Source of the DNA: a virus
Virus record (IMG/VR): IMGVR_UViG_3300027811_000039
Location: 21,149 to 85,148 of that record
Length of the DNA: 64,000 nt
Strand: one strand, 5' to 3'
The notes under the pieces were generated by a model that saw nothing but the letters and a program-made list of their open reading frames with translations, was not told the origin of the DNA and made no database searches. The position numbers and the translations under genes were made by a program. Of this stretch, positions 10,633 to 63,231 are shown piece by piece; within the stretch, counting starts at the first letter, position 1, and every line of letters starts with the position of its first letter.

Positions 10633-10639
10633 ATATACA

Positions 10640-11401: not shown

Positions 11402-11405
11402 TTAT

Positions 11406-11819
11406 TCACCCCATCTTTGTAAATAAAATTTCAATTTCTGAAATTTTATAATACTCACCATTATAATAAGATTTAGCATTATTTCTTTTTAATAATCTCT
11501 TAACATCCCATGCACCCATGCTAAAATAATGCTTTATATTATTTGCATGAATATATGTTTTATTTGATGGCAGATATGATGAATTGAGGATCGGCGATAA
11601 TTCCACAATATAAAATGCTTCCCTTTCATCTAATTCATTAACATCAACTTCTATATATGAAAAGCTATCAAAATCCTTGTCCCTATGTCCATAAATTCTT
11701 GATACTCCAAACTTGCTTTGGCCTACATAGATTATCTTGTTATCCTTAATCAGAAAATAGATCATCGGTTTTTTATTAATATTTTGTTTTTTATCCAAAA
11801 TATAATTTACCAATTTCAT
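11406..11819 (-). CDS. GIY-YIG-like nuclease domain protein
   Basis: MIYFL....IIYVGQS....SRIYGH...E.E...I..L.P.LN. Start placed at ATG 11819. Confidence 0.6.
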   Translation of the reverse strand: MKLVNYILDKKQNINKKPMIYFLIKDNKIIYVGQSKFGVSRIYGHRDKDFDSFSYIEVDVNELDEREAFYIVELSPILNSSYLPSNKTYIHANNIKHYFSMGAWDVKRLLKRNNAKSYYNGEYYKISEIEILFTKMG

Positions 11820-11855
11820 CCACCTTACTTTTATTATTAATAAGATATATAAACT

Positions 11856-11954
11856 TTGTATAGGTGTATTTTGTATAGGTGTATTTTGTGGGTTCAAATT
11901 CTGCACCCCCCCAGTATAGAATCTGCACCCCCCCAGTGCAAAATCTGCACCCCC
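11856..11954. repeat. Putative replication origin: three iteron-like repeats at 22-bp period plus a 15-bp tandem repeat
   Basis: CTGCAC(5-7) units start at 11901, 11923 and 11945. TTGTATAGGTGTATT occurs at 11856 and 11871, next to an AT-rich tract. Confidence 0.7.
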
Positions 11955-11967
11955 TGTTGATAACTAT

Positions 11968-12357
11968 CTATTTCCTTTCATCCATCATTTCGTTAAATAA
12001 TTTATCTGGACTCAGCATACCTTCCGCAACCATTCTTTCCATTTCCTCTGTGTCATCGTTATATAAAAAATACATAACTTTTTCAAATCCCGGTTTTCCA
12101 GCCTTAACTTTCCATATATAACCATTCTCTTCTAACCACTTCATTCCCGATAAAACGCTATTCTTGCTTAATTTTGTTAGACTTATAAGCTGAGACATTG
12201 CCAACCAATCACCAATTTTTCCCCAACCCCATGTTTTTCTGACTAATATCAAATAACATTTAATAGCAGCAAGATTAGTCATTTTTGGGATATATATATC
12301 AAAAACAACATTTGGGACTTCGGTATAATTTTTCTGTGGTTTTGGTAATCTAAACAT
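11968..12357 (-). CDS. Phage replication-initiator-like winged-HTH protein (lambda O N-terminal type)
   Basis: NYTEVPNVVFD...L.LVRKTWGWGK..DW+AMSQL..LTKLSKNSV..G+.WLE..GYI. Confidence 0.7.
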   Translation of the reverse strand: MFRLPKPQKNYTEVPNVVFDIYIPKMTNLAAIKCYLILVRKTWGWGKIGDWLAMSQLISLTKLSKNSVLSGMKWLEENGYIWKVKAGKPGFEKVMYFLYNDDTEEMERMVAEGMLSPDKLFNEMMDERK

Positions 12358-12377
12358 CTTATTTTTCTCCTTTAATT

Positions 12378-12408
12378 AAAAAAGCCACCTTAGCACAAGC
12401 CAGATAGC
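12378..12408 (-). terminator. Terminator-like hairpin (putative attenuator) immediately before the rep RBS
   Basis: Minus-strand RNA GCUAUC-UGGC-UUGU-GCUA-A-GGUGGC-UUUUUU. RBS AAGGAG at 12372-12367. Confidence 0.55.
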
Positions 12409-12428
12409 AGAAGATCCATAAAATGTCA

Positions 12429-12458
12429 TTGATACCTTGTACTATTACATGGTACAAT
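12429..12458 (+). promoter_or_regulatory. Plus-strand sigmaA promoter antisense to the rep leader
   Basis: TTGATA-18 bp-TACAAT with TG extension, inside an imperfect palindrome. Confidence 0.55.
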
Positions 12459-12464
12459 GGGCAT

Positions 12465-12546
12465 AATGTTATAGGAATCTCTGCACTATTTTGGGTAGTG
12501 CTAAGACGAGAAAACCTTCAAGGACTGAGAATCCTTGGAGGTTTTT
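12465..12546 (+). ncRNA. Putative ~80-nt antisense (countertranscript) RNA
   Basis: Lies between the promoter at 12429-12458 and a 14-bp stem plus T-tract terminator at 12511-12546. Internal hairpin GCACTA-TTTTGGG-TAGTGC. Confidence 0.5.
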
Positions 12547-12564
12547 GCTTTATTCATTTTTGCC

Positions 12565-12573
12565 ATTATATCA
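12565..12573 (-). promoter_or_regulatory. Extended -10 promoter for the rep leader
   Basis: TGaTATAAT on the minus strand, about 200 nt upstream of the rep ATG. Confidence 0.5.
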
Positions 12574-12576
12574 CAA

Positions 12577-12762
12577 TCATGGGACGAGTTGAGTTTTATT
12601 TTTCTCCTTCAACGCTTTCTGGATATAAATCCAATATTCCTTTGATACCACGATAACATTCCCATAATTAGATTCCACTTCAAGTGGCTCATTGGATCTT
12701 ATAACCTCATTTATTTTTCCGAAAAAGTTATCTCTGAACTCAGCTACTGCAATTTTCTCCAT
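12577..12762 (-). CDS. Phd/YefM-family antitoxin-like protein
   Basis: I.VAEFRDNFFG.+NEVI....PL.V....GNV+VVS.EYW. Confidence 0.75.
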   Translation of the reverse strand: MEKIAVAEFRDNFFGKINEVIRSNEPLEVESNYGNVIVVSKEYWIYIQKALKEKNKTQLVP

Positions 12763-12784
12763 CTTCTTTTACTCCTTTACTCTT

Positions 12785-12979
12785 TTACCCCTTTATCTTA
12801 ACTGCTGCAAAAATCATCCTATTAACCCCAATAACCTTTCCTAAAACTTCATGATGTTCATCTTCAAAATGAGTAGGTTCTTTGTATCCCTGTTCCCTAG
12901 CAATTTTTGTATCTTCAAATACATCCTCAATTTTCACTGTCAGAAATCTTGGTGTTTTAATATAATCGCCTTTTTTCAT
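12785..12979 (-). CDS. Hypothetical protein
   Basis: ORF with GAGGGG RBS. Confidence 0.55.
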   Translation of the reverse strand: MKKGDYIKTPRFLTVKIEDVFEDTKIAREQGYKEPTHFEDEHHEVLGKVIGVNRMIFAAVKIKG

Positions 12980-12999
12980 TTCTTTTAAGTTCCCTCCTT

Positions 13000-13269
13000 T
13001 TATGGATTACATAAAATCTCGTCATGGTGCCCACAATTCCTGAAAATAATATTTTCTTTTCCATCTATACTAAATGTAATTCTAATATCCATATTTCCAC
13101 TAATCTCATAAACTCCTCGATACCCTTTGACCTTTTTAAATCTCAAACTATTTGGCAATGGTTCAGAAAACAACTGGACTATCGCCTTATTTATTACCTT
13201 TTGTATTGCTCTATCTAATTTCATATATTGTTTTGTGAAATAATTAGTTCTCTGCAAATCTTTAAACAT
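13000..13269 (-). CDS. RelE/ParE-superfamily toxin
   Basis: RT..F.KQY.KL...SLRFKKVKG..GVYEI...DIRITF...I.FRN.G.HDE. Overlaps the upstream antitoxin gene. Confidence 0.75.
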   Translation of the reverse strand: MFKDLQRTNYFTKQYMKLDRAIQKVINKAIVQLFSEPLPNSLRFKKVKGYRGVYEISGNMDIRITFSIDGKENIIFRNCGHHDEILCNP

Positions 13270-13546
13270 CTGATTTTAACCCATCTAAATGTTTCATTAA
13301 ATTTTCTAGATCCATCGGTTTACTGACTCTTCCCAACCTGATATCTTCATCAGCCTCACGTTCTCCATCTTGCCATTCTTTTGTCCAGAACCATGCTTGG
13401 CTTTTATCAATAACTAGAACTGGTGTAATAATTATCTTTCCATCTTGGACGATAATTTCCAAATTATCCCCTTTCTTTATCTCTAACTCTGCTACAACTT
13501 CTTTTGGTAAAGTTATTTGGGATTTCTCCCTGAGTGTCAGAATCAT
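13262..13546 (-). CDS. AbrB/MazE/SpoVT-family antitoxin
   Basis: LREKSQITLPKEV..EL.IK.GD.LEI...DG.III.P, then QAWFWT.EWQ.GERE. Confidence 0.85.
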   Translation of the reverse strand: MILTLREKSQITLPKEVVAELEIKKGDNLEIIVQDGKIIITPVLVIDKSQAWFWTKEWQDGEREADEDIRLGRVSKPMDLENLMKHLDGLKSDV

Positions 13547-13630
13547 TTCCTTCCCCACTTTCCTACATTCCAACTTTCCTACATTTGCATTGTACTATGA
13601 TTATGATTACTTTGTCAACATGTAAGCAAA

Positions 13631-13657
13631 AGAAAAGGGCCGGATGTTTATCCGGCC
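13631..13657 (-). terminator. Intrinsic terminator ending the structural/lysis operon
   Basis: GGCCGGAT-N4-ATCCGGCC stem followed by CTTTTCTTTT on the minus strand. Confidence 0.75.
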
Positions 13658-13660
13658 TAT

Positions 13661-13945
13661 TTACTTTCCATTCCCATTCCTTGCGACTTCAATTGTTGAC
13701 TTACTGGAAGAATATAAACCACTAGCTGATAATCCAGTAATAATCCCAAGTAATACAGCCATTGGTATATCCTCCTGTGAACTAGGCATGAAAAAATAGG
13801 ATACTAAAATACCCAACACTATATTTGATACTGGGTAATACTTTTTATCCATCCCTAGACTTTTAAATACTTGGGTTATAACTATAATGATAGGGATGAA
13901 AAAAGACATCAATTGCCAATCATTTGCATTAATAAAAATTTCCAT
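13661..13945 (-). CDS. Holin
   Basis: Three hydrophobic segments with P++...+TQV.K...KKY.P...LG...GI+.GL.ASGLYS..K. Start at ATG 13945 with AGGAGG RBS. Confidence 0.75.
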   Translation of the reverse strand: MEIFINANDWQLMSFFIPIIIVITQVFKSLGMDKKYYPVSNIVLGILVSYFFMPSSQEDIPMAVLLGIITGLSASGLYSSSKSTIEVARNGNGK

Positions 13946-13958
13946 ATAGGCCATCCTC

Positions 13959-14258
13959 CTATGGACAAAGAGTAGGCTGCACAACATCAAATGTTCTACT
14001 AGAAGTGAAAACATTTCCAGATGGATAACCAATTCTTACCTCGAATTTATAGACTCCAGTTGTCGGTAAATCGCCAGAAGCTACTTGATATGCTACTTTA
14101 CCACCAGTAGTATTATAAAACATCATGGTATGACTAGTTAATGATTGACCATCATAAATGCATAATGAAGCAGTAGTTGCTCCCGATAAATCAACGACTG
14201 CATCTGAGGGATCAACAATAGTAAAGATTAATAATGCTCCTATGTCATCTACTTTCAC
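13959..14258 (-). CDS. BppU-N-like baseplate/adaptor beta-sandwich protein
   Basis: D.G..L.F.+VD....VDLSGAT...G.V.Y....GDL...G.Y.FEV.+. Confidence 0.55.
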   Translation of the reverse strand: MKVDDIGALLIFTIVDPSDAVVDLSGATTASLCIYDGQSLTSHTMMFYNTTGGKVAYQVASGDLPTTGVYKFEVRIGYPSGNVFTSSRTFDVVQPTLCP

Positions 14259-35670: not shown

Positions 35671-35717
35671 CTCCCCCCAAAGGATTGCCCTTGTCCCTCC
35701 CTTAATCTTTTCTTTTT

Positions 35718-36174: not shown

Positions 36175-37149
36175 CTAAGTTATAGCTGCCGAGAAGAAGC
36201 AACCTAAATCAGCCCCAACAACTTTTAAGCTATATGCCGATTCTCCTTCAATCCGATTAGCAGCATTTTGTTCCATGCGGAAATTCTTGATCCTGACACC
36301 TTCTGCTCCTGAACCAAAAAGTCCAGACCATGTGAACAGATACCCAGCAGAAGGTTGATACAAGCCTGGTGCTGGTGCAGCATATCCAAGGAATGCATTT
36401 TTACCATACACAAAACTATATGATGCTGTAGCAGTCTCATTTGCAGTATTCCTAACTGCCCTTGGTACAAGCACTCTCTCCACATCGAACAAAACAGCCA
36501 GAATTTCTTCTGTGATAACTCCTTTTTGGGTATATTTAACACGATCTAAAATATCTGGATGATTTTTCAATGTTGTATAAACCTGTGGCCCGAGAACTAG
36601 GCAATTCGGACGATAACCAGTTTTTTGAGAAATACTATCCGCTTCGTTCGTAATATCCTCAATAGGTGTACTGACGATATTATCCCAAAGTGTGAAATCA
36701 ACACCTCCAACTAGATCTGTCCCAGTCGTAGCACCAGTCCAAAGTCCAGTAGTGAAGAAATGTGTGACCCAATCAAGTTCACGTTTGAGAAGAATTTGTT
36801 GAGTTACATAAACGGTGTGTGATCTCTCAAGTTGCAACGGTTGATCTGCATTAGCTCTTGTTTGGTCGTCAAGATCCGCATGGTATCCGATTACATCACA
36901 AGAGTAATTATCTGTGCTCAAACGATATCCACCACCAGCAGTTTCTGCCCCCGGTGCCCTCAATTTAGCTTCACTACGGAAGAAATCAGCTTGTGAGAAT
37001 ACGAAATACTTATCACTCTTATTGGTAACTGGAACAATCGGAAATACTTTATTCGCAATGAAGTTACGTTCTGTATCCTGAATATATGCAATTGAAATGT
37101 TAGTTAATGCACGGTCTACATGAACATCCGATAAGGTAGGATTCGGCAT
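36175..37149 (-). CDS. Major capsid protein (HK97 fold, capsid protein E-like)
   Basis: P..SDVHVD..LTNIS+AY.Q....IA..VFP.VPV...G..PN.+V+G.....L..HP.I. Confidence 0.9.
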   Translation of the reverse strand: MPNPTLSDVHVDRALTNISIAYIQDTERNFIANKVFPIVPVTNKSDKYFVFSQADFFRSEAKLRAPGAETAGGGYRLSTDNYSCDVIGYHADLDDQTRANADQPLQLERSHTVYVTQQILLKRELDWVTHFFTTGLWTGATTGTDLVGGVDFTLWDNIVSTPIEDITNEADSISQKTGYRPNCLVLGPQVYTTLKNHPDILDRVKYTQKGVITEEILAVLFDVERVLVPRAVRNTANETATASYSFVYGKNAFLGYAAPAPGLYQPSAGYLFTWSGLFGSGAEGVRIKNFRMEQNAANRIEGESAYSLKVVGADLGCFFSAAIT

Positions 37150-37194
37150 ATCTGTTACCTCCTTCTATTTCTGTAATTAATAGCAATAAAAAAA

Positions 37195-37271
37195 CCCCCT
37201 AAAGTTGGCAACAAAAAAGCACGATCTTTACTGGGGGGGATTCAGTAATGGGCAATGCCCTAGATCGTGCT
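37195..37271 (-). other. Branched (three-way junction) structured intergenic element upstream of the capsid gene
   Basis: 10-bp outer stem 37218-27/37262-71 encloses two hairpins, followed by a U6 tract and a downstream GGGGG-U8. Confidence 0.55.
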
Positions 37272-37302
37272 AAATCTTAATTTTTTTTAAATCAAACTGA
37301 AT

Positions 37303-40435: not shown

Positions 40436-40717
40436 TCATGCTTCTCTCTCCATTCTCTCCTTCTCTGCCCTTACCCTATTTGCCTCTCCTCCCCGCTTAT
40501 GTCTTTCCGATCTGTTATATTTCAAAATCGTAATAACTTCCTCATATAATGCAATATCAATTTCCTTCAAAAATTTCTGCAGATCTCTATGAACTGTACT
40601 TTTGCTTACTCCGAATTCTTCTGCAGTTACCCTAATTGTTGATTCATTTTCAACAATAAAATTTGCTTCCAATACTGCTCTCTGATGGATCAATTCTCGT
40701 AATGCTGAATTAATCAT
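40436..40717 (-). CDS. spoIIID: SpoIIID-like sporulation transcription factor
   Basis: T+R..A.EFGVSKSTVH+DL...L.EI...L..EV..IL.Y.+S.RH.RGGEA matches SpoIIID. Confidence 0.9.
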   Translation of the reverse strand: MINSALRELIHQRAVLEANFIVENESTIRVTAEEFGVSKSTVHRDLQKFLKEIDIALYEEVITILKYNRSERHKRGGEANRVRAEKERMEREA

Positions 40718-43241: not shown

Positions 43242-44576
43242 TTAAAATTTGTGCGGGCTATCCCGAGAAAAATCTTCAATGCCCGCAGGGTTATAACTCA
43301 TGATTTTCTTTAACCCACCCATTAATTCAGTTATGGCAAAAACAAGAGCATCAATTCTATCTGGTGAATCTGGATCACTTTCTGGATCCCACTCAATCAT
43401 CTGAGTTTCTAAATCAGGAAACAACCCCACATGATGCACACGATTTTGTTCATATAATGCTGCTACTGGTTCAGCTCTTACCTTTTTTCCCTTACTTGAA
43501 TGCACGCCCCTGAACGCCACATTTGTATCAATTGTTTTTATAACGTGTTGAACCATATCCCCACCTTGATTTATTTCTGCAACAACCCTATCTGCTAACA
43601 ATTTATTGTAAAGCGAAACTACCGCATTGCCCCATCCATTCGGAGATTCAATGCATGACTTATCATCCAACACATAGAATTCACCATCAATTCCCTTCCC
43701 TACGGCAACAATTCCTGTTTCATCCGATTTTTTATTTGCCGTAATAGCTGGATCCACCCCAACCACAATTCTCACCAATCTTGGATGTTTATTAACTCTT
43801 GTCTCTTCAATATTTTTGCTCTTCCACAATGCTTTTGGATTATCGTCAAGAACTTTACCATAAATTTCCTGTTGTCCAATCCTTGTTCCCTTAAACCTCT
43901 CGATAATTGAACTAAAAAAAACAGGAGATAAATTATCCCTGTTTTCAAAAGTAGATCCTCTAGTCACATAAACATTCGGATCATTTATTAATCTTTTAAT
44001 AGTTGCAGTCGGCCTTGGTGTCGTAGTTATGATACACCTCGGATCATTCCCGATCCTCAAACAAAACGCAATCATATCCATGACTTCTTTTTGTTTTCGA
44101 GCAGAACATAATTCGTCAATCCAAGCTGTATCTATATTCGGGCCACGCAATTGATCTGGTTCATCACCCGAATAAGTTATTGCGATTGCTCCAGTATGAA
44201 ATGTTATTTTCCTCTTTGATGGCTCATACATCGGCCTCTTATACTTTGGGAAAACACTTAAAACACCACTAGGCCCCTCAACCATTACGTCTCTAATATC
44301 TGCCGTTCTCGGTGCAACCAAAGCAATATATTTCGATTTGTGAGCATCAACTCTTTCACGAATCCACTCTGCAGCCATCTTGGTTTTTCCATATCCTCTT
44401 CCAGCCAAAACCAACCAATATGTCCAATCTCCCTCTGGTTCAATCTGATTCTGCCTTGCCCATAATCCCCTCCAATCATAATACAAAAATTCTACTTCTT
44501 CCGATGAAAGGTTTTTTATGAATTCTTCTTTCTGTTCCTTGCCTAGTAATCTAAATTTTGCAAACGAATCTTTCAA
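43242..44576 (-). CDS. Terminase large subunit
   Basis: Walker A LAGRGYGKT, Walker B AWIDE, nuclease VGVDP...SDETG and SPDR+DAL. Confidence 0.97.
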   Translation of the reverse strand: MKDSFAKFRLLGKEQKEEFIKNLSSEEVEFLYYDWRGLWARQNQIEPEGDWTYWLVLAGRGYGKTKMAAEWIRERVDAHKSKYIALVAPRTADIRDVMVEGPSGVLSVFPKYKRPMYEPSKRKITFHTGAIAITYSGDEPDQLRGPNIDTAWIDELCSARKQKEVMDMIAFCLRIGNDPRCIITTTPRPTATIKRLINDPNVYVTRGSTFENRDNLSPVFFSSIIERFKGTRIGQQEIYGKVLDDNPKALWKSKNIEETRVNKHPRLVRIVVGVDPAITANKKSDETGIVAVGKGIDGEFYVLDDKSCIESPNGWGNAVVSLYNKLLADRVVAEINQGGDMVQHVIKTIDTNVAFRGVHSSKGKKVRAEPVAALYEQNRVHHVGLFPDLETQMIEWDPESDPDSPDRIDALVFAITELMGGLKKIMSYNPAGIEDFSRDSPHKF

Positions 44577-44733
44577 AATACTTCAACCCCACAACATCGT
44601 TCGCTTTATTATTTTAATTTGCGTACCTTCGCCCATCTTATTACGCAGCAGTTCCCCTAGCATCACTCATGACAATCCATGTAATTGCGGAAGCTACAAT
44701 GAATCGCACTAGAACCGCCCCCATTAATTCACA

Positions 44734-45438
44734 TCAAATTAGGCATCTAAGTAATTCAAATCCCTCTGCTGAACTCATTCCCACTATTGACCCCATATTA
44801 CAGGCCATTAATTGAACTAATTCAGTCGATCTAGGATGCGGGAAATCTCTGATCTCCGTGTCATAACATTTCAACGCATTCACCTTTAATTCTGTGAATA
44901 ATCCAACATCCATAAAAACATTCGGGCTAAAACTCCCAAATGCCGAAAATGTCCATTCTGTACTCGATGGTATCGGGAACATATAAATAGCTGCAACCCT
45001 ATGTTTGCCCTGCATCGGCCTTGTTGCCGTAATTACTGCCCTATTTGTAATACAATGATCAATATTTAGATCCTTTTGAGAATGCGTGAATATGCAATCT
45101 GGTTTTATCTCTTCAATGATTTCCTCAATAGATTTAACTATGGTCAATAATGGAACAGTATCGAACTTATTGTCTGGATAATCAAAAAATCTCATATATT
45201 TCTTAGTTTCTACCTTTGGGATCCCCATCAATACAGACATCGCAGACCTTGATTTCTCTTTGACTTTTTCTTTCTCGAAATCTAATAACTTATCATTATC
45301 AGTCCTTGATGTTAATCCATAACTCATATACACAATATGGACGTTTTGTTCATCCATCCTCACCGATCTAGCTATAATTCCACCACATCCAAGCACTTCA
45401 TCATCTGGATGGGCAGCTATCACCATTATCTCAGGCAT
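44734..45438 (-). CDS. PIG-L/LmbE-family deacetylase
   Basis: AAHPDDEVLGCGG...D+N+DH. Confidence 0.9.
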   Translation of the reverse strand: MPEIMVIAAHPDDEVLGCGGIIARSVRMDEQNVHIVYMSYGLTSRTDNDKLLDFEKEKVKEKSRSAMSVLMGIPKVETKKYMRFFDYPDNKFDTVPLLTIVKSIEEIIEEIKPDCIFTHSQKDLNIDHCITNRAVITATRPMQGKHRVAAIYMFPIPSSTEWTFSAFGSFSPNVFMDVGLFTELKVNALKCYDTEIRDFPHPRSTELVQLMACNMGSIVGMSSAEGFELLRCLI

Positions 45439-46127
45439 TACATCAAATCCCCCATCAATAATTTCGCTAGTTTAAGATCATGTGCCGTATTGATATCCAT
45501 TGCTCTTTCCTCACTCACATAGTAAGGCATTATTTTTGGCATATAAAAATCTTCATACTGCATAAAACTCTTAGTCCTAACGAAAATAATTGAACCATCA
45601 TGGATATATGCCGATTCCAATTCAGTATGTTGAGTATCAATATCATCTGGAAACATCGGTTCCACTAGGCCAGTTTCCTTATTCACCCTAAGCGAATGCT
45701 TGGGTGGATGCTTCAATTTACTCACACTCATTACCCCATTTATCCCTGTATGCTTTTCCATCAATGCTGACGCTGTTCTTAAATCATTAATGGTTCTGAG
45801 TGGTGATGTTGGGATAATTAACGCTATATTATCGAAATGATTTTCTTCCGCACAATATATCTCGGCAAGATATTTTACCAATGTCCTAAGTTTGCAATGA
45901 TCACCACTGAGATTGGGTGGCCTCAAATGCAGGGCCACTTTATATTTTGATGCGATATCTAAAAATGATCTTTCATCACTCGTCACAACAATTTCAGAAA
46001 AAACTCCACTTGCTACCGATATTTCTATTGCGTGTTCCAATAAAGATTTCCCATTAATCATTTGGATATTTTTCTTTAATAATCTCCTTGATCCACCTCT
46101 TGCTGGGATTATAGCTAATGTTCCCAT
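45438..46127 (-). CDS. Acylneuraminate cytidylyltransferase (NeuA/PseF/SpsF family)
   Basis: AIIPARGGSRRL..KNI..+NGK.L...PTSPLR...DI.T..D. Confidence 0.93.
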   Translation of the reverse strand: MGTLAIIPARGGSRRLLKKNIQMINGKSLLEHAIEISVASGVFSEIVVTSDERSFLDIASKYKVALHLRPPNLSGDHCKLRTLVKYLAEIYCAEENHFDNIALIIPTSPLRTINDLRTASALMEKHTGINGVMSVSKLKHPPKHSLRVNKETGLVEPMFPDDIDTQHTELESAYIHDGSIIFVRTKSFMQYEDFYMPKIMPYYVSEERAMDINTAHDLKLAKLLMGDLM

Positions 46128-46146
46128 CCTTTTCCCCCCGCTTCAC

Positions 46147-46851
46147 CTACACCAACATAGCCACCAAATTCCATGTTGCTTCTTTATTTTTTTCTGGTGT
46201 GATAATTTGAGATTCTTTATACTCTAACAACTCTATCTCAAATCCAGATTCAGCAAAAATACTACTAAGATGTTCCTTCGTGCTAAAATGTACTGCTCCA
46301 CAACCTGAAAATTTTCCCGCATTGAACATGAATGTAAATGGATCACCCGCATTATCCTCAGTTACTCTCCCAACCCTTTCACCATGTTCCCATGCAAACC
46401 AATCAATGCCAACAAACTTTCCTGCTGGTTTTAACTTTTCTGCTATAAATGCCAAAGAATCCAAAATGCTCATTGTCGTATTATGTGTCAAGGAACTTCT
46501 ATCAATCACAAGATCAAATTTTTCATCGAATGGAATTATTTTAGTAAAATCAGCATTGACAACCTTATCTGCTATTTCTGGATATTTATCACGAATCAAC
46601 TTAACGGCTGTCGGACTACCTTCAATTGCATAATATTGAACACCAATGGAAAGGAAATAAGGTATATTTGCACCAATTCCCGGCCCCAACTCTAAGACCT
46701 TATCACCCTCCACCAAATTAGCATATCGTTTTACATATTTGATCAAATCAGTCCAAGGCCACAATGAATGGCTCTTTCCCACTAGATATCTCTCTTCCCA
46801 CTCTTTTGCTATCATCATTCCACCACCATATAACTCATAGTGGGACACCAT
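46147..46851 (-). CDS. Class I SAM-dependent methyltransferase (start probably near 46815)
   Basis: KVLELGPGIG...YAIEGS...FDLVIDR.SL.H. Confidence 0.85.
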   Translation of the reverse strand: MVSHYELYGGGMMIAKEWEERYLVGKSHSLWPWTDLIKYVKRYANLVEGDKVLELGPGIGANIPYFLSIGVQYYAIEGSPTAVKLIRDKYPEIADKVVNADFTKIIPFDEKFDLVIDRSSLTHNTTMSILDSLAFIAEKLKPAGKFVGIDWFAWEHGERVGRVTEDNAGDPFTFMFNAGKFSGCGAVHFSTKEHLSSIFAESGFEIELLEYKESQIITPEKNKEATWNLVAMLV

Positions 46852-47498
46852 TCAAATCTCTGTAACCGAATATTTTTTAGTCCTAACGTTTCCCTAATTG
46901 CTAATGTTTCACCGGGCCAATTTTCATTATTTGCCTCGTCAAAAGCTATCACCGAACCCCTGACTATTCTTTCTTTGCATAATTCTAAGCACACCCTTGT
47001 TGGCTCATATATATCAAAATCAAAATATGCTAGAGCAACAATTGTTTCTGGATGTTTACGAAAATAATCTGGCAAGCTAAAAAGCACATTCCCTTTCACC
47101 AACTCATGTTTAGATATGTGGCTAATAGGACTTGCCTTTTCTTGTTCCACCAATATTTTTTCTAGATATTCTTGGTAGTTTTTAGTAACTCCCATATCTC
47201 CAATTTTTGCATCCCCATCATATTCAGACACTTGTGGGAATCCCTCGAAAGTATCAAAACCAACAATCTTTCTTGTATAATTAAACGGTTCAAACATCCC
47301 TCTTAGGCATTCAAATATAGCCATATCTTGACCCCATCTAACTCCAAACTCAAAGATATTACCATGAACATTTATGATCTTCCTATATAATTCATAAAGG
47401 AATATAACTCTGGTTAATGGCTGTCTCTTGATAAATAAATTAAGATTAGATAACATTTCATGCTCAGGTATCGGACAATCCACAAACATACTTATCAT
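46815..47498 (-). CDS. TylF/MycF-family sugar O-methyltransferase
   Basis: G.IFEFGV..G...GFDTFEGFP...ALAY.D.D.YEPT...G.+IAFDE. Confidence 0.85.
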   Translation of the reverse strand: MISMFVDCPIPEHEMLSNLNLFIKRQPLTRVIFLYELYRKIINVHGNIFEFGVRWGQDMAIFECLRGMFEPFNYTRKIVGFDTFEGFPQVSEYDGDAKIGDMGVTKNYQEYLEKILVEQEKASPISHISKHELVKGNVLFSLPDYFRKHPETIVALAYFDFDIYEPTRVCLELCKERIVRGSVIAFDEANNENWPGETLAIRETLGLKNIRLQRFEWCPTMSYMVVE

Positions 47499-48241
47499 TT
47501 AACTACCCCATCCAAAGTTATTTTTTTAACATTACCGCTCATGATTATATCCAAAGAATTCGGCCCCTCGTTGAATAAAAGGTCAATTATGCCCATAAAA
47601 GGAATGAACTCCCCATGCAATTGCCGATATATCGGGTGGATATATTCCTGAAAATAAGGTTGGATATTATTTACCCTAAACGATTCCCTATTTGCATAAT
47701 TCTGACCTTGCCCACCAAAGATATAGATATCAGCTTCGAGTGTCTTGCACATATCTAAAACAAGATCATTCTTGACACCCTCAAAGCTATAATTAACCGC
47801 ATAGTCAACTTCTGTCTTAATACCTAATATCTTCAAATACCAATCAAACATATGGTTGTTTAAATCAATCAGATATTTCCAATCTCGTCTATAAACATCT
47901 TTAAAAAATTCTGCATATTCATTAAAATATTTAGCTTTTTTATAAGCTAAGTAGATCGAAGTCCAATTCTTATCTCTCCATCTGGTGCTGTTATTTATCT
48001 CGATCTCAGCTATGGTTTTATTACGGTGATCTTTCTTTAATACAGGAACAGTCAACCACATATAACCAGAATGTGTCTTTATCTTGTTCCTATTCATCCA
48101 ATCCTTATTGCAATATTGAACTTGATCAAAATGGATATATTTATCAGCCAATGCAACCTTGTGAAACAACCCCAACCAAGGTACATAGCTAGTTTGATGT
48201 GCTGTTAATACCATCAATTTATTCGGACTTAAAACAGGCAT
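47495..48241 (-). CDS. WbqC-family protein
   Basis: HQ..Y+PWLG.F.K...D.VQY....W.NRN+IKT...WLT+PV...Y.Q..GEF+P.+.I+DLLFN.G. Confidence 0.9.
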   Translation of the reverse strand: MPVLSPNKLMVLTAHQTSYVPWLGLFHKVALADKYIHFDQVQYCNKDWMNRNKIKTHSGYMWLTVPVLKKDHRNKTIAEIEINNSTRWRDKNWTSIYLAYKKAKYFNEYAEFFKDVYRRDWKYLIDLNNHMFDWYLKILGIKTEVDYAVNYSFEGVKNDLVLDMCKTLEADIYIFGGQGQNYANRESFRVNNIQPYFQEYIHPIYRQLHGEFIPFMGIIDLLFNEGPNSLDIIMSGNVKKITLDGVVK

Positions 48242-49194
48242 TCCTTCACCACCATTATTATAAATTCCACCTCTTCATCGGTGAGATTCGGATAAATCGG
48301 TAATGATACTAGACTTCTAGTAAGTTCTAATGCATTCGGGAAATATTCCTTTATGCCCAATAACTCCGATTCCACAATCGGTATAATCGCCCTAATGCCA
48401 TGCAATGCCAATACCTTAACAAGTACCCTCGCCTTACTAGTTATCAATATAGCCCTATACCTGACATCCTCTATATTTTCCTTCTTACTCCACAACATAG
48501 GCAACCCAGCCATAACATATTTGCTGAATATTTCTTCCCTACGTTCAATGAACCTTCCCAACTTAGCTAATTGAACCCTGCCAATCGCTGCTTGTAAATC
48601 AGTCATTTGAAAATTAAATCTTGGCTTTAGGTCATCCCTCATATCAAATTCTCTGAAATCCCTTATTTCATCTATTTGATCTCTTGACCACGATACAACT
48701 GCCCCACCCTGTCCACCACTAGTAATAATCTTTGTTGCCGAAAATGAGAATACCCCATAATCTCCAATTGTCCCAACGAATCTGTCATTAACCTTCGCAC
48801 CCAATGCCTGTGCTGCATCTTCAATGAACGGTGTTTTCATACTCTGAATATAATTAGGGAATCCAAACATATGAGTAACGATATTCAAATCAATTGCATC
48901 CACATCCTTAGGACACGGAACACAATTTGCCATAATTATGGCATTTCTCACGGATGAACAAGTATAAATCGGATATGATACCCTCTCTATTCCTAGTTGC
49001 CTTATCGCTAAATATAAAGCTGCAGTTCCACTACTAACGGCTACTGCATGACCATCTGGAATTCCAAGATACCTGCACAATTCATTTTCAAATCCCTCAA
49101 CCTCTTTGCCTTGTCCAACCCATCCAGATTCAATAACCCTATTTGCAGCCCTCATTTCATCCGTGCCCATAGTTGGGCAATTATGAGCTATCAT
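48229..49194 (-). CDS. DegT/DnrJ/EryC1/StrS PLP aminotransferase
   Basis: AVSSGTAAL...IEDAAQA.G...FSFSATK.IT.G..GG. Confidence 0.9.
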   Translation of the reverse strand: MIAHNCPTMGTDEMRAANRVIESGWVGQGKEVEGFENELCRYLGIPDGHAVAVSSGTAALYLAIRQLGIERVSYPIYTCSSVRNAIIMANCVPCPKDVDAIDLNIVTHMFGFPNYIQSMKTPFIEDAAQALGAKVNDRFVGTIGDYGVFSFSATKIITSGGQGGAVVSWSRDQIDEIRDFREFDMRDDLKPRFNFQMTDLQAAIGRVQLAKLGRFIERREEIFSKYVMAGLPMLWSKKENIEDVRYRAILITSKARVLVKVLALHGIRAIIPIVESELLGIKEYFPNALELTRSLVSLPIYPNLTDEEVEFIIMVVKECLF

Positions 49195-49640
49195 GGCCTA
49201 ATATAATATCCTGCTCTGATATTCATCGGATTCCCCCAAACCAAAGAATAAGGCGGGATCTTCCCCGGCCCAACCATTGTTCCAGCAACAATAACCGAAT
49301 GATGCCCTATAGTAGTTCCACCCTTTACAACTGAATGTGAACCAATGAAAACATTGTTCCCGATCCAAATCCCTTTTCGTTCAATATCTTCTGAGAATCC
49401 AAGGCATTTTTTATGGGAATCTGCTGCATTGATAGCAACAAATGAAGCAATATCACAATCATTTTGGATCACAACATTCACACCTTTGGCATTTATTTCA
49501 GAAAACGCCCCAATGTAAACATTATCCCCAATCACAGGACTTCCCTTAACGATCACCATCGGATGGAATCTATTTATATCCAACCCCAATAATTCAATGA
49601 TTATCTTTTTCATTCTCGCTTTTAAGGATATCTTTATCAT
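49191..49640 (-). CDS. Hexapeptide-repeat (left-handed beta-helix) acyltransferase
   Basis: IGDNVYIGA...IG.NVFIG..SV+..G..IG..S+I.AG. Confidence 0.85.
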   Translation of the reverse strand: MIKISLKARMKKIIIELLGLDINRFHPMVIVKGSPVIGDNVYIGAFSEINAKGVNVVIQNDCDIASFVAINAADSHKKCLGFSEDIERKGIWIGNNVFIGSHSVVKGGTTIGHHSVIVAGTMVGPGKIPPYSLVWGNPMNIRAGYYIRP

Positions 49641-50634
49641 TCAACTTTTCCCCTTTTCCAATATCCCTAGAAGCAATCATGCCTAAGAATAGATCAATAT
49701 TTATTGGTGCCAACCCATCACTCGGACGCATCATGCCTAAATTTTTATCCGTAAATAGATCCCCTGCTTTTATATCTAATATTGCTGTCAAACTTCTTCT
49801 AGCTATCTTCCTCATGGCCTCTTCTTTTTTAGTCGGCCTCAACCCACTAGAACCAAGCATTTTGTCTGCTTTGTGAATTGCCTCAACCCAATCTTTCAGA
49901 TCTTGGGGATTCTTGCTGAATTTATGATCTGGCCCAATATCACTATTGGATAGAGTAAAATGTGTCTCAAATACTCTTGCCCCGAAACCCAACGCCAACA
50001 CCGCAGCAATATGTCCTGTTGTATGATCCGAATAACCAAGCAACATATTCGGTAACACCTTTGAAATCTTATCCAACTTTTTCATATTCACTTCATCTGG
50101 CATTGTTGGATATAAAGATGTGCAATGCAGGATAATAAGAGGATAATCATCATCATTCCCCTTTATCACATTAACTGCTTTCTCGATCTCTTCTTGATGT
50201 GCCATCCCGCACCCTAGAATGATAGGTAATTTTGTTGCCGAATATTTCCTAAGCAATGGTAAATTATTCAGATCATCCGAACCAACTTTTATTGCCTTGA
50301 TACCCAAATCTAAAAGCAATTCTAAATCCGAATAGTTTTGTGGCGTTGATAAAAACGTGATACTCAACTGTTCTGTCCACCTTTTTATCTGTCTCCATTC
50401 ATCAACTTCCAACTCACAAGCCTTAAATGTTTTATATAACTCTGCATTAGGATTACAGAATTCATCAGCCTTGAAGGTCTGGAACTTGATCGCATCAACA
50501 CCCGCTCTTTTAGCTGCCCCAACCATCTCCATTGCTGTTTTCAGATTACCATTATGATTAATCCCAACCTCAGCTATAGTAAATGGTCTATGATATCTAC
50601 TTATCGTCCTGCCCCTAATCTGGATTTCCCTCAT
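49594..50634 (-). CDS. N-acetylneuraminate-synthase family (NeuB/PseI/SpsE) with SAF domain, copy 2
   Basis: IAEVG+NHNG...DAIKFQTF...KVGS.D..N..L...LHC.S.YPT...GYSDHT.G...E.HFTL...GPDH. Confidence 0.93.
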   Translation of the reverse strand: MREIQIRGRTISRYHRPFTIAEVGINHNGNLKTAMEMVGAAKRAGVDAIKFQTFKADEFCNPNAELYKTFKACELEVDEWRQIKRWTEQLSITFLSTPQNYSDLELLLDLGIKAIKVGSDDLNNLPLLRKYSATKLPIILGCGMAHQEEIEKAVNVIKGNDDDYPLIILHCTSLYPTMPDEVNMKKLDKISKVLPNMLLGYSDHTTGHIAAVLALGFGARVFETHFTLSNSDIGPDHKFSKNPQDLKDWVEAIHKADKMLGSSGLRPTKKEEAMRKIARRSLTAILDIKAGDLFTDKNLGMMRPSDGLAPINIDLFLGMIASRDIGKGEKLNDKDILKSENEKDNH

Positions 50635-51710
50635 ACAAAACTAGTCCAATCATCCCATGTTATAACTTCATTCTTGGCAATATCCCTATTCACTCTCTTA
50701 CCGATCATTTGACCCATATAAAGAGGTGACACCCCAGTTCCCGGCCTCTTTGCACATAACATATCTTTGGTGATCACTTCACCCTCCGATATATTACAAT
50801 CTGCAACGATACTCGTTAAATACAAACATTTCATGGATAAATCTTCGATTGAAGGTTTTAATGCTTTTTCACCCATCACCAACTCAGCCTGTCTAATGTT
50901 CTTTACCCACTTCCTAAACTCAATCGGATCTAGTGCTTTGCTGTGATGATGCCCAACTGTATCCCTATTCATTGTCATCCTTTTTTCCATCAATTCTGCA
51001 CCCAACGCAACTGCCATTACATCGACTTTTGCATCTCTTGAATCTGCAGAATATCCAACTGGAATCCCTAACATCTCTTTTAAATATGGGATGCTGTTTA
51101 GATTTATTTTCTCTACCGAACTCGCATGGCTGCAATAAACCAACATGACCTCTGTTGCTCCATGCTTTTCAAGGAACTCCAATATCTGAACAACCTCACC
51201 CATGATTGCTGGCCCCAAATCAATCTGAATCGGCTTGCCTGTCTTTGCGACTGCTTCAAGTAATGGGTAATTCCTAAGATCCCATGAACCTATTTTATAA
51301 GCAGAAACATTAGCGTCTTCTGCCCATTGAACACTTCGCAACGAATCCACCGACAAATAAAAAGTTATCCCGATACTTTTTGCATATCTGGACAACTCTA
51401 TCAATTCCAATGGGCTAAATTGATGTTTCTTTAACATTTCAAACATATTTTCTTCTTGAATCCCACTAGAAGTCTCATATCTATATTTTACCGATTTATC
51501 CGACATAAAACCTTCACAATCAATAGTCTGAAACTTTACAGCATTTGCTTCTGCAACTTTTGCCTCATAGATCAATTCCTTTGCTGTCTCTAGACATCCA
51601 CAAGCCGTCACTCCTGTCTCAACAACAATATAAATTGGGTTCCCTTTTCCTATTTCATTTCCCCCAATATTAAAATGCGACCTGAAATTACTTCTCAGCT
51701 TCATTTTCAT
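50631..51710 (-). CDS. N-acetylneuraminate-synthase family with SAF domain, divergent copy 1
   Basis: AVKFQT...YKIGS.D..NYPL...GYS.D...EKR.T....G.HH...KRPG.G+.P. Several canonical NeuB residues differ (NHNG is TACG, SDH is SAD). Confidence 0.85.
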   Translation of the reverse strand: MKMKLRSNFRSHFNIGGNEIGKGNPIYIVVETGVTACGCLETAKELIYEAKVAEANAVKFQTIDCEGFMSDKSVKYRYETSSGIQEENMFEMLKKHQFSPLELIELSRYAKSIGITFYLSVDSLRSVQWAEDANVSAYKIGSWDLRNYPLLEAVAKTGKPIQIDLGPAIMGEVVQILEFLEKHGATEVMLVYCSHASSVEKINLNSIPYLKEMLGIPVGYSADSRDAKVDVMAVALGAELMEKRMTMNRDTVGHHHSKALDPIEFRKWVKNIRQAELVMGEKALKPSIEDLSMKCLYLTSIVADCNISEGEVITKDMLCAKRPGTGVSPLYMGQMIGKRVNRDIAKNEVITWDDWTSFV

Positions 51711-52222
51711 TTTACCCCCAACTTCAATTCCGCAAGTTTATCAATTGTTCTCTTCTCTAATCTGCTAACATAAGACCTCGAAATACCTATTAACTCTGCA
51801 ATTCTCTCTTGCTTTAATTCATAGTAAATTGCATAGGTAAAAATATCCCTTTGCCTCTGATTCAAAGAATTCAACACACCTCTAATTGCAATTATGTCCA
51901 GAACATTGTCATATTCAAGATGTTTTGAATCTGAAATTGATTCATTTAGATATTCTTTCAACTCTCTAGAAACATTCTTTCTTCTTAATGCCATTTTTAT
52001 CTCATTTTCCATACACTTAACTGCATATGTCGAAAACTTAGTTCCTTTATCTGGATTAAATGTTATTCCTGCTTTACATAAAGCATATGAAAACATAGAA
52101 AAAATTTCATCATAGTTATATGGGTACTCTATAGTACATTTATTTGACCACTTGTTAGCCATATATCTCGCCAGATTTAAGTTATCTTCCACCAATCCCC
52201 TTTGCTCTTCATTTAATTTCAT
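51707..52222 (-). CDS. Sigma-70 family factor, SigK-like region 4
   Basis: FNPDKGTKFSTYAVKCMENEI and IAELIGISRSYVSRLEKR. Confidence 0.85.
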   Translation of the reverse strand: MKLNEEQRGLVEDNLNLARYMANKWSNKCTIEYPYNYDEIFSMFSYALCKAGITFNPDKGTKFSTYAVKCMENEIKMALRRKNVSRELKEYLNESISDSKHLEYDNVLDIIAIRGVLNSLNQRQRDIFTYAIYYELKQERIAELIGISRSYVSRLEKRTIDKLAELKLGVK

Positions 52223-52253
52223 TCGCTTTACCTCCCACCAAAGAGTAAAGCCA

Positions 52254-52844
52254 TCAAGAAACGTGTTCTATTTCACTCGACTTCCTATTGAATTTCGCAA
52301 GTTTGTCAATGATTCTTTTTTCCAATCTACTAATATACGATTGCGATATTTTCAATTTGTCTGCTATGACTTTTTGCGATTCTTTATGGAAATAACGCAT
52401 AGTTATGATTTTCAATTCACGTTCTTTCAATATCTTTATCGCATCTTTAGCACACATTAAATCTAGTATCGCATCATATTGCAAATGATCATTATTGCTA
52501 ATGAACTCCTCTAACTCAACCGTATTCCCATCCGAATCCTCTGACATAATTCCATTTAGATATAGATCTGGCCCATTTCTCAACTGATTACCTTTTTTCC
52601 TGAAAGCCATTTTTATCTCATTCTCCATACATCTAGCAGCATAAGTTGCGAATTTAGCACCAGCTAAATTATCTGGATCAAAACTTCTTGCAGCTTTACA
52701 TAATGCAAATGAGAACATCGAAAAAATATCATCATGATCGAAATTCTGGACTCCACATTTCACCCATTTATGTGCCATATATCTAGCCAAATTTATATTG
52801 TCCTCAACTAATTTCCTTTGTTCTTCATTCATAATCATTTCCAT
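52254..52844 (-). CDS. Sigma-70 family factor, SigE-like region 4
   Basis: KFATYAARCMENEI and SQK.IAD.L.ISQSYISRLEKRII. Confidence 0.88.
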   Translation of the reverse strand: MEMIMNEEQRKLVEDNINLARYMAHKWVKCGVQNFDHDDIFSMFSFALCKAARSFDPDNLAGAKFATYAARCMENEIKMAFRKKGNQLRNGPDLYLNGIMSEDSDGNTVELEEFISNNDHLQYDAILDLMCAKDAIKILKERELKIITMRYFHKESQKVIADKLKISQSYISRLEKRIIDKLAKFNRKSSEIEHVS

Positions 52845-52889
52845 TTGCCTTCCCCCTCACAAGAAAACAAAAAAACGACTTTCGCCGTT

Positions 52890-53951
52890 TTACCTTGACG
52901 CTTCTCCCAACGCCATTATTATTAACTTTTGTTCATACTCACTCATGCTCGGATACAATGGAATGGTCAATAGGTATTTCCAGATCCTTTCCGCTATCGG
53001 TGTGGCTCCCGCCATATCATAGAAACTTTGGAGTGTTACTGGCCTGTAATGGATTTGAGTATTAATTTTGTATTCCTTCAACTTTTCGATAAACCTATCA
53101 CGATGTTGGGTTAATATTATATAAATGTGCCTTGCATTAGTCCTATTCTGCTCCTGCACAATTTTAGCAATATCTAATTCATCTAGAGCTTTGTCATAAA
53201 CACTAGATAATCTCTGTCTCGCCAAAACCAATTCTGGAATCCTTTTTATCTGGTTTAAACATAACCCAGCCTGAATATCTGACATTCTGTAATTATATCC
53301 AAGGAATATGGTATCCCCGTTTTCCCTTCCATGATTCCTGAATGCTTTCATGATCCTATAATTCTCTTCGCTGTTTGTGGTTATTATTCCACCCTCACCA
53401 CTAGTGATTAATTTAGATGGATGTAAACTGAAACAACTTAGGTCAACAAGGGTTCCAACCTTTTTGCCCATATATGATGCACCCAACGAATGACAAGCAT
53501 CAGCAACTACCTTTAGGCAATATCTTTTCGCTATACCATTGATCCATTCATAATCTACTGGTTGCCCTGCGAAATCTACTGGGATAATTGCTTTGGTTTT
53601 ATATGTGATCTTCCTTTCGATATCTGCAGGATCAATCAATAATGTTCTTTCACATATATCCGCAAATACAGGAACCCCACCCATATATTTCACCACATTT
53701 GCTGTTGCAACGAATGTCATGGATGGAACAATCACTTCATCCCCCGGCCTGATCCCTATCGCCATCAATGCAGTATGGAGTGCTGCTGTCCCGCTTGATA
53801 CAGCTACCGCATATTTTGCACCAACCGATTTTCTGAATTCATCTTCAAATACTTCTATGATCTCACCCTGCGTAATGCTTTTTCCTCTAAGAACCCTTAT
53901 GACCTCTTCAATATCTTCATCCTCTAACTGGTGTTTTGCATAGGGAATCAA
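52890..53951 (-). CDS. pseC: UDP-4-amino-4,6-dideoxy-HexNAc aminotransferase (PseC-like)
   Basis: IPYAKH.+..EDIE.V..VL....ITQG...DACHSLG...SLHP.K.IT+GEGG...LGYNYRM+DIQ. TTG start at 53951 with AGGAGG RBS. Confidence 0.85.
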   Translation of the reverse strand: MIPYAKHQLEDEDIEEVIRVLRGKSITQGEIIEVFEDEFRKSVGAKYAVAVSSGTAALHTALMAIGIRPGDEVIVPSMTFVATANVVKYMGGVPVFADICERTLLIDPADIERKITYKTKAIIPVDFAGQPVDYEWINGIAKRYCLKVVADACHSLGASYMGKKVGTLVDLSCFSLHPSKLITSGEGGIITTNSEENYRIMKAFRNHGRENGDTIFLGYNYRMSDIQAGLCLNQIKRIPELVLARQRLSSVYDKALDELDIAKIVQEQNRTNARHIYIILTQHRDRFIEKLKEYKINTQIHYRPVTLQSFYDMAGATPIAERIWKYLLTIPLYPSMSEYEQKLIIMALGEASR

Positions 53952-53973
53952 AGTTCCTCTACCTCCTAACATC

Positions 53974-62599: not shown

Positions 62600-63231
62600 G
62601 CATCTTTCCTCGCTCTCCCATTAATAATAGCAACCATATTTCCATAAGACATTTCAAAAGTTTCCGCAAGTTGTTTCCTTGTATAATTTCCTGTTTCCCA
62701 TAATGATTTTATGACCCTAATTTCTTCATCATTAAACTTTGAATTGTGATGAGTATTCCCTTTTGGTGGTTTTCTCCTTTGTCCATTAAGCAATTTATTC
62801 ATATAACTTCTTGCAATTCCAAATTTATCAGCTAATTCTCTCTGAGTAAAATGACCACTCTCATACTCACTTCTTACCTTTTCAATCATTTCATCCGTAT
62901 ATTTAGCATTATAAACATTAAACCCTGATCCATTTCTGCCCTTCATCACCATATCACTCGAATTTTCTTGAGGTGTTCCCAAAAATAAATGGGATGGTTT
63001 TACACATGAAGGATTGTCACATTTATGGCAAACCAATAATCCTTCTTCAATTTCACCATATGCAAATTCCCAAGATACCCTATGTGCCCTTAATATCGGT
63101 TCCCCAGCCTTACCTTTTCCAATTTGTCCATACCCTTTTGCTGTTTTAAAACCTTTCCATATCCAACAATTTTCCGTGACTTCTACTTTTTCCATAAATC
63201 TTTCAAACAATGATTTTTTATGATTGCCCAT
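62596..63231 (-). CDS. HNH endonuclease with C-terminal HTH domains
   Basis: CW.W.G...GYG...AHR.SW...G+.VCH.CDNP.CV.P.HL.LGT..EN..D. Confidence 0.9.
   Translation of the reverse strand: MGNHKKSLFERFMEKVEVTENCWIWKGFKTAKGYGQIGKGKAGEPILRAHRVSWEFAYGEIEEGLLVCHKCDNPSCVKPSHLFLGTPQENSSDMVMKGRNGSGFNVYNAKYTDEMIEKVRSEYESGHFTQRELADKFGIARSYMNKLLNGQRRKPPKGNTHHNSKFNDEEIRVIKSLWETGNYTRKQLAETFEMSYGNMVAIINGRARKDA

Follow-up and report, generated by a model that had tools for sequence, protein, structure and literature searches.

Two adjacent sigma factor genes, here called sigUp and sigDn, occupy positions 51707-52844 of a 64,000-nucleotide stretch of viral DNA (IMG/VR record IMGVR_UViG_3300027811_000039, positions 21,149 to 85,148), which we refer to as the window. 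The window is part of an 86,734-bp soil virus record judged 99% complete, whose viral identity is evident from its terminase, portal and head genes. The list of open reading frames (ORFs) places exactly two ORFs in this interval, both on the minus strand, and their products are related to the mother-cell sporulation factors SigE and SigK. The two genes and their recognition helices are as follows.

52254-52844, minus strand: sigUp, Q-type sigma factor of 196 amino acids; sigma-2 domain, linker and sigma-4 domain; no pro-sequence
52308-52349, minus strand: region 4.2 recognition helix of sigUp, ISQSYISRLEKRII; specificity residue Q168
51707-52222, minus strand: sigDn, R-type sigma factor of 171 amino acids; its stop overlaps the start of a NeuB gene
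51749-51784, minus strand: region 4.2 recognition helix of sigDn, ISRSYVSRLEKR; specificity residue R149

Two intact sigma factor genes of the sporulation family

An earlier, sequence-only reading of this DNA had recognized two paralogs with a common N-terminus and different region 4.2 sequences. The translated ORFs agree: sigUp and sigDn are 49% identical (E 1e-55, with one large gap), share the N-terminal motif NEEQRxLVEDNxNLARYMAxKW, and carry the different helices ISQSYISRLEKRII and ISRSYVSRLEKR. Both proteins exceeded the Pfam cut-offs for region 2 (Sigma70_r2, PF04542; 31.1 bits for sigUp and 29.8 bits for sigDn, cut-off 24) and for the helix-turn-helix of region 4 (Sigma70_r4, PF04545; 46.8 and 44.9 bits, cut-off 24.1), and both fall in the PHROGs family phrog_351, 'RNA polymerase sigma factor'. 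Among NCBIfam families, SigK and SigE ranked highest with almost equal scores, about 80-112 bits where the cut-offs are 252-349, sigUp reaching at best 112 bits for SigK and 106 bits for SigE, far under both cut-offs. The SigE models TIGR02835/NF006158 (cut-offs 348.6/339) gave 100.9/106 bits for sigUp and 79.2/81.3 bits for sigDn, and the SigK model TIGR02846 (cut-off 298.65) gave 103.2 and 81.7 bits, respectively, indicating that neither protein is an equivalog of SigE or SigK. As phage-encoded proteins with a sporulation sigma family as their best TIGRFAM match, they belong to the group delimited by Schwartz et al. 2022 (PMC9429907), a study that also documents the earlier statement that phage sporulation-like sigma factors are known.

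Both genes are under purifying selection: among close relatives, the ratio of nonsynonymous to synonymous substitution rates (dN/dS) of the Q-type was 0.06-0.28 and that of the R-type 0.04-0.07. In the alignment, residue 6 of sigUp falls 28 residues past the YIGG landmark at the start of mature SigE, demonstrating, as the sequence-only reading had proposed, that no inhibitory pro-sequence is present. In both proteins the N-terminal pro-sequence and about 25 further N-terminal residues are absent, nothing lies N-terminal of region 2.1, and neither the pro-sequence that SpoIIGA removes from SigE nor that which SpoIVFB removes from SigK has a counterpart.

The two proteins also differ in the linker. 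The DGNE linker motif is kept in SigE, SigK, the Q-type proteins and those R-type proteins whose genes adjoin an endolysin gene, and about 17-20 linker residues that include it are missing from sigDn and its tandem orthologues, sigDn being shorter here than sigUp by about 17 residues. In related factors this linker enters the active-site channel, and it is conceivable that after its loss sigDn no longer initiates transcription and serves as a modulator, perhaps one that competes for core polymerase or -35 sites; the long branches on which sigDn and its tandem orthologues lie would fit such a change of role. We regard this as very improbable, because both DNA-binding domains are intact by Pfam and the R-type dN/dS is as low as stated above. 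Minimal sigma factors with short linkers do function, which also counts against it. As a separate observation on the linker, the Q-type gene of a related contig, L019 (8001-8513; noted together with protein P0004), has a linker segment resembling that of more distant Q-types, which suggests mosaic recombination within the gene.

Region 4.2 specificity and descent of the pair

Reference motifs for region 4.2 were taken from clostridial orthologues rather than from the B. subtilis proteins. They comprised 16 SigK proteins, each over the TIGR02846 cut-off, and 16 SigE partners from the same genomes, which matched both SigE models at E <= 1e-50 (the member with a score shown reached 423.6 bits against 339). 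The clostridial SigE genes adjoined sigG in 5/5 genomes checked. ISQSYISRLEK was found in 16/16 clostridial SigE proteins and (I/V)SRSYVSRIEK in 16/16 clostridial SigK proteins. The sigUp helix is identical to all 16 SigE proteins over its first 11 residues (ISQSYISRLEK), and its whole 14-mer equals the SigE consensus; the first 8 residues of the sigDn helix, ISRSYVSR, are those of 15/16 SigK proteins, the remaining one having VSRSYVSR. The assignment of one SigE-type and one SigK-type helix, made originally on B. subtilis motifs, was therefore borne out on clostridial proteins.

The residue that separates the two helices is a documented determinant of -35 specificity. In B. subtilis, Q217 of sigmaE versus the arginine of sigmaK accounts for the ATA versus AC -35 elements of their promoters; the substitution Q217R enables sigmaE to work at sigmaK promoters, and the Q/R pair is retained in C. 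difficile (Saujet et al. 2013, PMC3789822). At this position sigUp has the glutamine of SigE and sigDn the arginine of SigK, and the column is invariant within each phage group, with Q in 15/15 Q-clade and R in 10/10 R-clade proteins. Another column of the helix, four residues past the RLEK core, behaves similarly: SigE and the Q-clade have I there, SigK and the R-clade A/T. Overall, sigUp is SigE-like at 5/6 helix columns. Across 19 columns that discriminate SigE from SigK, the Q-clade agrees with SigE at 6 and with SigK at 9, and the R-clade with SigE at 4 and with SigK at 7. By these comparisons, mimicry of the host factors is limited to region 4.2, neither copy siding with SigE or SigK elsewhere.

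Regions 2.3-2.4 further separate the phage proteins from the host factors. The motif TYAxRCIENEI, which the sequence-only reading had ascribed to both B. subtilis factors, proved invariant in the clostridial SigE and SigK sets; in the phage proteins, which keep the TYAxRC(M)ENE core, M replaces I. The region 2.4 residue after ENEI is L in 32/32 host proteins and K/R in 25/25 phage proteins. From sigma-70 alignments, we take this position to correspond to a residue in contact with the -10 element at its upstream edge.

With SigF/SigG as the root, a maximum-likelihood tree was built from 69 proteins; in it, SigE (support 99/98) and SigK (100/98) are sister clades (100/96), and 23 phage proteins form a separate group (93/91; 99/92 with two long-branch rows added). 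This phage-only clade is sister to SigE+SigK. Within it, the R-subclade (95/87) and the Q-subclade (88/87) are distinct; sigDn joins the other tandem R-types (99/97), which are sister to the endolysin-adjacent R-types. Approximately unbiased (AU) tests rejected the grouping of the Q-types with SigE (p 0.0004) and of the R-types with SigK (p 0.0011), placing the phage proteins outside both host clades. When the 14 helix columns and the two long-branch rows were left out, the phage clade (100/99) and the Q group (89/83) were recovered, and the R group with 60/77. Two changes on the tree account for the Q/R state. As SigF and SigG have Q, arginine arose twice, and the phage arginine is convergent with that of SigK.

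Because the phage-only clade lies outside SigE and SigK and the AU tests reject the alternatives, sigUp and sigDn are paralogues that arose by an old duplication inside the phage lineage. Of the earlier proposal that a duplication produced mimics of both mother-cell factors, the paralogy and the Q/R difference stand; the duplication is old, it maps to a phage-only clade, the arginine is convergent, and the mimicry is confined to region 4.2. Separate captures of a host sigE and a host sigK were considered and are ruled out by the tree and the AU tests. A recent tandem duplication is likewise ruled out, as sigDn groups with endolysin-adjacent R-types and the two types lie 7 kb apart in the related phage G045.

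The distribution of relatives fits this history. Close relatives (50-70% identity) were found only in metagenomic viral contigs; no near-identical DNA was found in the phage collection, and a search for prophage relatives among 185,579 representative bacterial genomes returned only two distant matches. Orthologues of sigUp are 64-70% identical in four related phages. Contigs L016-L019 carry the same tandem pair at the same place, Q-type first and R-type second. In G045 (88 kb), the Q-type gene follows a PseC-like gene and the R-type gene lies between the endolysin gene and a gene for a 161-residue regulator, and in the short contigs L008, L009 and L023 the R-type gene adjoins the endolysin gene. 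From this arrangement, the tandem layout is derived, the R-type gene having been relocated from beside the endolysin gene. Both types are present, in tandem or apart, in G000, G043, G044 and G045, and G046 (88 kb, with terminal repeats) has a Q-type only.

If the Q/R difference had little effect in this protein background, the two copies would read the same promoters and serve as a redundant or dosage pair. Regions 2.3-2.4 and most of region 4.2 are indeed common to both, and in G046 the Q-type alone suffices. Yet Q and R are each invariant in their own clade over deep divergence, with only two changes on the tree; a single Q-to-R change switches sigmaE specificity; and both copies are under purifying selection despite their 49% identity. 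We consider redundancy improbable.

A SpoIIID homologue, phage promoters and possible targets

The genome holds a third regulator of mother-cell type, encoded in the head module.

40436-40717, minus strand: SpoIIID homologue of 93 amino acids; Pfam PF12116 at 92.9 bits (cut-off 27)

The protein scored 81.7 bits against the TIGR02844 cut-off of 111.5, matched PDB 2L0K at E 1e-18, and keeps the GVSKSTVH recognition helix and the basic tail; homologues are also present in G044, G045 and G046. The SpoIIID consensus of B. subtilis is TAGGACAAGC (PMC11180830). Its core, GGACAAG, occurs 17 times on the sense strand versus 0 times on the antisense strand of the phage genome (e.g. 35690-35696). Eight copies are intergenic, where intergenic DNA makes up 12% of the genome (binomial p 5e-4). 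GGACAAG often stands 2-5 nt past TATAAT. The pattern as a whole, strand bias included, recurs in three relatives. It suggests, short of proof, that at least the phage SpoIIID homologue acts on the phage's own promoters.

Taken together, these data lead us to a reading in which both proteins are active sigma factors with different -35 preferences and form part of a phage-internal circuit built from mother-cell-type parts; our judgement of this reading as a whole is evenly balanced. Both would be working sigma factors of a phage-specific lineage related to SigE and SigK, active as soon as translated because they have no pro-sequence. We infer that they would bind the host core RNA polymerase and send it to promoters, among them those of phage genes, with similar -10 but different -35 elements. 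The Q-type copy would read a T-containing, sigmaE-like (ATA) -35 element, and the R-type copy a C-containing, sigmaK-like (AC) element. Historically, an old duplication in the phage family would have been followed by the evolution of arginine independently of SigK, and in the present sub-lineage the R-type gene would have moved from beside the endolysin gene to a place behind the Q-type gene in a sugar operon. The pair and the SpoIIID homologue would then be part of the phage's own timing circuit. A more specific version is a checkpoint-free mother-cell chain on the phage, running from a sigmaE-like factor through SpoIIID to a sigmaK-like factor whose specificity was re-invented by the Q-to-R change after the phage-internal duplication; its use would be to set the timing of late functions, for instance virion sugar decoration, or to force an infected spore-former into a mother-cell-like state. 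This version is speculative, and we hold it to be rather doubtful.

Scans of the phage for promoters of the predicted classes, the check that the sequence-only reading had called for, did not yield them. Four patterns (CATAnnnTA, CATA(H)(H)(W)T, AC-N15-18-CATAnnnT(A) and ATA-N15-18-CATAnnnT) were scanned in four genomes. In strict and relaxed form, these sigmaE/sigmaK-type patterns were neither commoner on the sense than on the antisense strand nor clustered upstream of genes. In the source genome the strict -10 pattern (CATAnnnTA) had 0 occurrences within 120 nt upstream of a gene start, and among relaxed sense matches 2/11 of the sigmaE-type and 1/10 of the sigmaK-type lay within 150 nt upstream, with similar counts in three relatives. 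When two-block motifs were enumerated across 177 upstream regions, housekeeping-type promoters and a GACAA (SpoIIID-like) box came up and nothing else. Housekeeping-type TTGACA-17-TATAAT promoters serve the small-gene region (window 1-14,000), and a promoter of the same type precedes terS, a gene of the late region, next to a small regulator gene.

59403-59461, minus strand: terS promoter, housekeeping-type; TTTACA, 17 nt, TATATT with TG; two TTTGGCAGGG repeats upstream
59463-59948, minus strand: regulator of 161 amino acids with a sigma region-4-like domain; phrog_36 and phrog_248, weak matches to Sigma70_r4_2 and TIGR02937

The terS promoter is conserved in G044 and G045, with the TTTGGCAGGG repeats spaced by 11 bp. 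These repeats are likely to be a binding site for the adjacent regulator, a candidate late activator whose gene lies directly upstream of the terS promoter.

Several of these observations weigh against a phage-internal circuit of two sigma factors. Neither the pattern scans nor the motif enumeration detected sigmaE/sigmaK-type promoters above background, and with early and terS promoters of the housekeeping type there would be no obvious need for sigma factors of the phage's own. The region 2.4 change from L to K/R may shift -10 reading away from CATA, the DGNE-bearing linker segment is lost from sigDn, and G046 manages with a Q-type alone. The lack of enrichment of sigmaE/K promoters on the phage weakens the reading with phage targets in particular and leaves room for one with host targets.

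In that alternative, the host chromosome would be the main target of the two factors. Free of a pro-sequence, they would stand in for SigE and SigK and switch on or derail mother-cell genes in an infected spore-former, and the phage SpoIIID would complete the set. The recognition helices are identical or nearly so to those of the host factors, including the specificity residue, and without a pro-sequence the proteins would not depend on the SpoIIGA or SpoIVFB checkpoints. There is also precedent in the sigF/sigG-like factors of phages, which alter the expression of host sporulation genes and reduce spore yield (PMC9429907). The host can be approached through the endolysin, whose closest named homologues (47-50% identity, full length) all come from Desulfosporosinus and related Desulfitobacteriaceae. 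These bacteria are spore-formers, so the homology points weakly to a spore-forming host. Among sequencing runs, the phage DNA turned up only in DNA runs of soil metagenomes, with no RNA run listed. Against a takeover, host identity is only a guess; both proteins fall outside the SigE and SigK clades, and their remaining sequence tracks neither; the region 2.4 residue is unlike that of all 32 host proteins; and the SpoIIID-type boxes on phage promoters argue for internal use. We judge a takeover of the host unlikely, though it is the main rival, and rank the phage-internal circuit above it mainly because SpoIIID-type sites stand at phage promoters. The targets of the pair could be phage genes or host genes.

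A further motif was noted in the promoter searches. All four phages have two copies per genome of TCATACAGATT(G/A)(T/G)A(A/G)GAA, with the conserved form TC(A/T)TAC(A/G) and a CATACA core. The copy at 62011-62021, on the minus strand, follows a terminator and precedes a small Cys-rich gene and the endolysin cluster; the second lies outside the window, at about genome position 10814, upstream of a gene. It is possibly an alternative promoter, a lead only, as no -35 element can be assigned.

Genomic setting and comparison with known systems

The sigma genes lie in the late region, which is read on the minus strand in the order endolysin, 161-residue regulator, terS, ParB-like gene, radical-SAM gene, TET-associated glycosyltransferase, Acb2/Tad1-like gene, PseB-like gene (55271-56254), repeat array, PseC-like gene, sigUp, sigDn, NeuB-family pair, other sugar genes and terL. 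The terL gene (43242-44576) is followed by portal and head genes, also on the minus strand. The principal neighbours are listed below.

60028-60864, minus strand: endolysin (amidase_3), late cluster
58837-59331, minus strand: terS, late gene
52890-53966, minus strand: PseC-like DegT aminotransferase (Pfam DegT_DnrJ_EryC1, 362 bits), immediately upstream of sigUp
52872-52889, minus strand: terminator-like hairpin between the PseC-like gene and sigUp
44734-51710, minus strand: downstream sugar genes, encoding by Pfam two NeuB-family synthases, a hexapeptide acyltransferase, a DegT aminotransferase, WbqC, methyltransferases, a CMP-sugar cytidylyltransferase and a PIG-L deacetylase

The start of the PseC-like gene was inferred from relatives, which begin LIPYAKHH; the longest ORF reaches 54128. 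Gaps between the downstream sugar genes range from -37 to 19 nt, and those around the sigma genes are 45, 31 and -4 nt. The sigma genes are therefore built into a nonulosonic-acid sugar operon, in agreement with the sequence-only reading, which had described them as embedded in a sugar cluster. That reading had also pointed to the host sps genes as mother-cell genes. The sps genes of B. subtilis are indeed sigmaK-dependent mother-cell genes, so the parallel with the phage sugar genes is factually sound; it remains an analogy.

The hairpin before sigUp has a counterpart in the terS leader, where a conserved hairpin lies just past the promoter (59349-59372, minus strand). The stem common to both, AACGGC...GTCGTTTTT, has 2 matches in the window versus 0 in 100 shuffles, which suggests common attenuation or antitermination control. 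Given the hairpin in front of them, the sigma genes may be expressed at a lower level than the upstream genes, or gated relative to them.

Other features of the region are recorded here as observations in their own right. The 70-residue protein encoded at 56286-56498 (minus strand) has a hairpin domain of the Acb2/Tad1 type (73 bits) and is a candidate sponge for nucleotides of defence signalling. At 56508-58158 (minus strand), between terS and the sugar genes, a TET-associated glycosyltransferase (PF20691) stands beside a radical-SAM protein, and the two may form a DNA-modification module. Two non-coding blocks on the minus strand are conserved across four phages, one upstream of terL (44576-44733) and one upstream of a gene for a 324-residue capsid-like protein (37149-37302); the latter consists of a hairpin, its loop conserved and C-rich, and then a G-run and a T-run. 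Rfam gave no match in the window, these two blocks included. HNH homing-endonuclease genes lie near the endolysin gene at 60925-61527 (plus strand) and 62596-63231 (minus strand), the former being among the few plus-strand genes of the late region. Strand-specific arrays with a 36-bp period occur at 54846-55210 (minus strand) and, larger, at two places outside the window (genome 3234-4888 and 14511-16677). Their motif GAGTGA(A/G)(C/T)CA has 56 sense versus 3 antisense copies, and the arrays are conserved in relatives.

Among known systems, SigE and SigK themselves (TIGR02835/NF006158 and TIGR02846/NF004471) share with the phage pair the layout of sigma-2, short linker and sigma-4, the TYAxRCxENE motif, and a region 4.2 helix that is identical (Q-type and SigE) or near-identical (R-type and SigK). 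Unlike them, the phage proteins form a separate clade, score low on the family models, have no pro-sequence and carry K/R in region 2.4, and the sigDn linker is short. The nearest match in an isolated phage is the sigma factor of Bacillus phage vB_BmeM-Goe8, a distant one with 33% identity over 90% of sigUp.

Phage SPO1 offers two comparisons. Its gp2.21 belongs among the sporulation-like sigma factors; others have hypothesized it, without confirmation, to read sigK-like promoters of SPO1 itself (cited in PMC9429907). In both cases a phage-encoded sigma factor would recognize mother-cell-type promoters within phage DNA; gp2.21, in contrast, is single-copy and non-essential, and on the present phage no sigK-like promoters were found. 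The SPO1 gp28 and gp33/gp34 cascade is alike in principle, successive phage sigma factors retargeting the host core polymerase to new promoter classes, but these belong to unrelated sequence families, and the present phage keeps its main early and terS promoters of the housekeeping type.

Phages of spore-formers mostly carry sigF/sigG-like factors, some of which reprogramme B. subtilis and reduce its yield of spores (Schwartz et al. 2022, PMC9429907), and a sporulation sigma orthologue group and spoIIID are among the genes found in phages (Schwartz et al. 2023). The Bacillus phage factors Eldridge g168/g169, SP10 g120 and Goe3 g157 (PMC9429907) resemble the present pair as phage-borne members of the sporulation sigma group; Eldridge also has two copies with consecutive numbers, g168 and g169, and the host or phage late genes have been proposed as the targets of these factors. 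They are sigF/sigG-like, that is, of the forespore line, and have been tested in B. subtilis, whereas the present pair belongs to the sigE/sigK branch, is split at the -35 residue, is accompanied by a SpoIIID homologue and is known from sequence alone. What is new is thus the combination of a mother-cell-branch pair that split inside a phage lineage, a convergent Q-to-R change at the documented specificity residue, the absence of pro-sequences, and a co-resident SpoIIID with matching sites. If the two -35 preferences are real, the pair would be a natural, independent repeat of the sigmaE-to-sigmaK specificity switch, in a compact system of 171 and 196 residues in which that switch could be studied without a processing step, and it would reveal whether, in phages of spore-formers, mother-cell cascade logic is copied to serve the phage's timing or is turned against the host.

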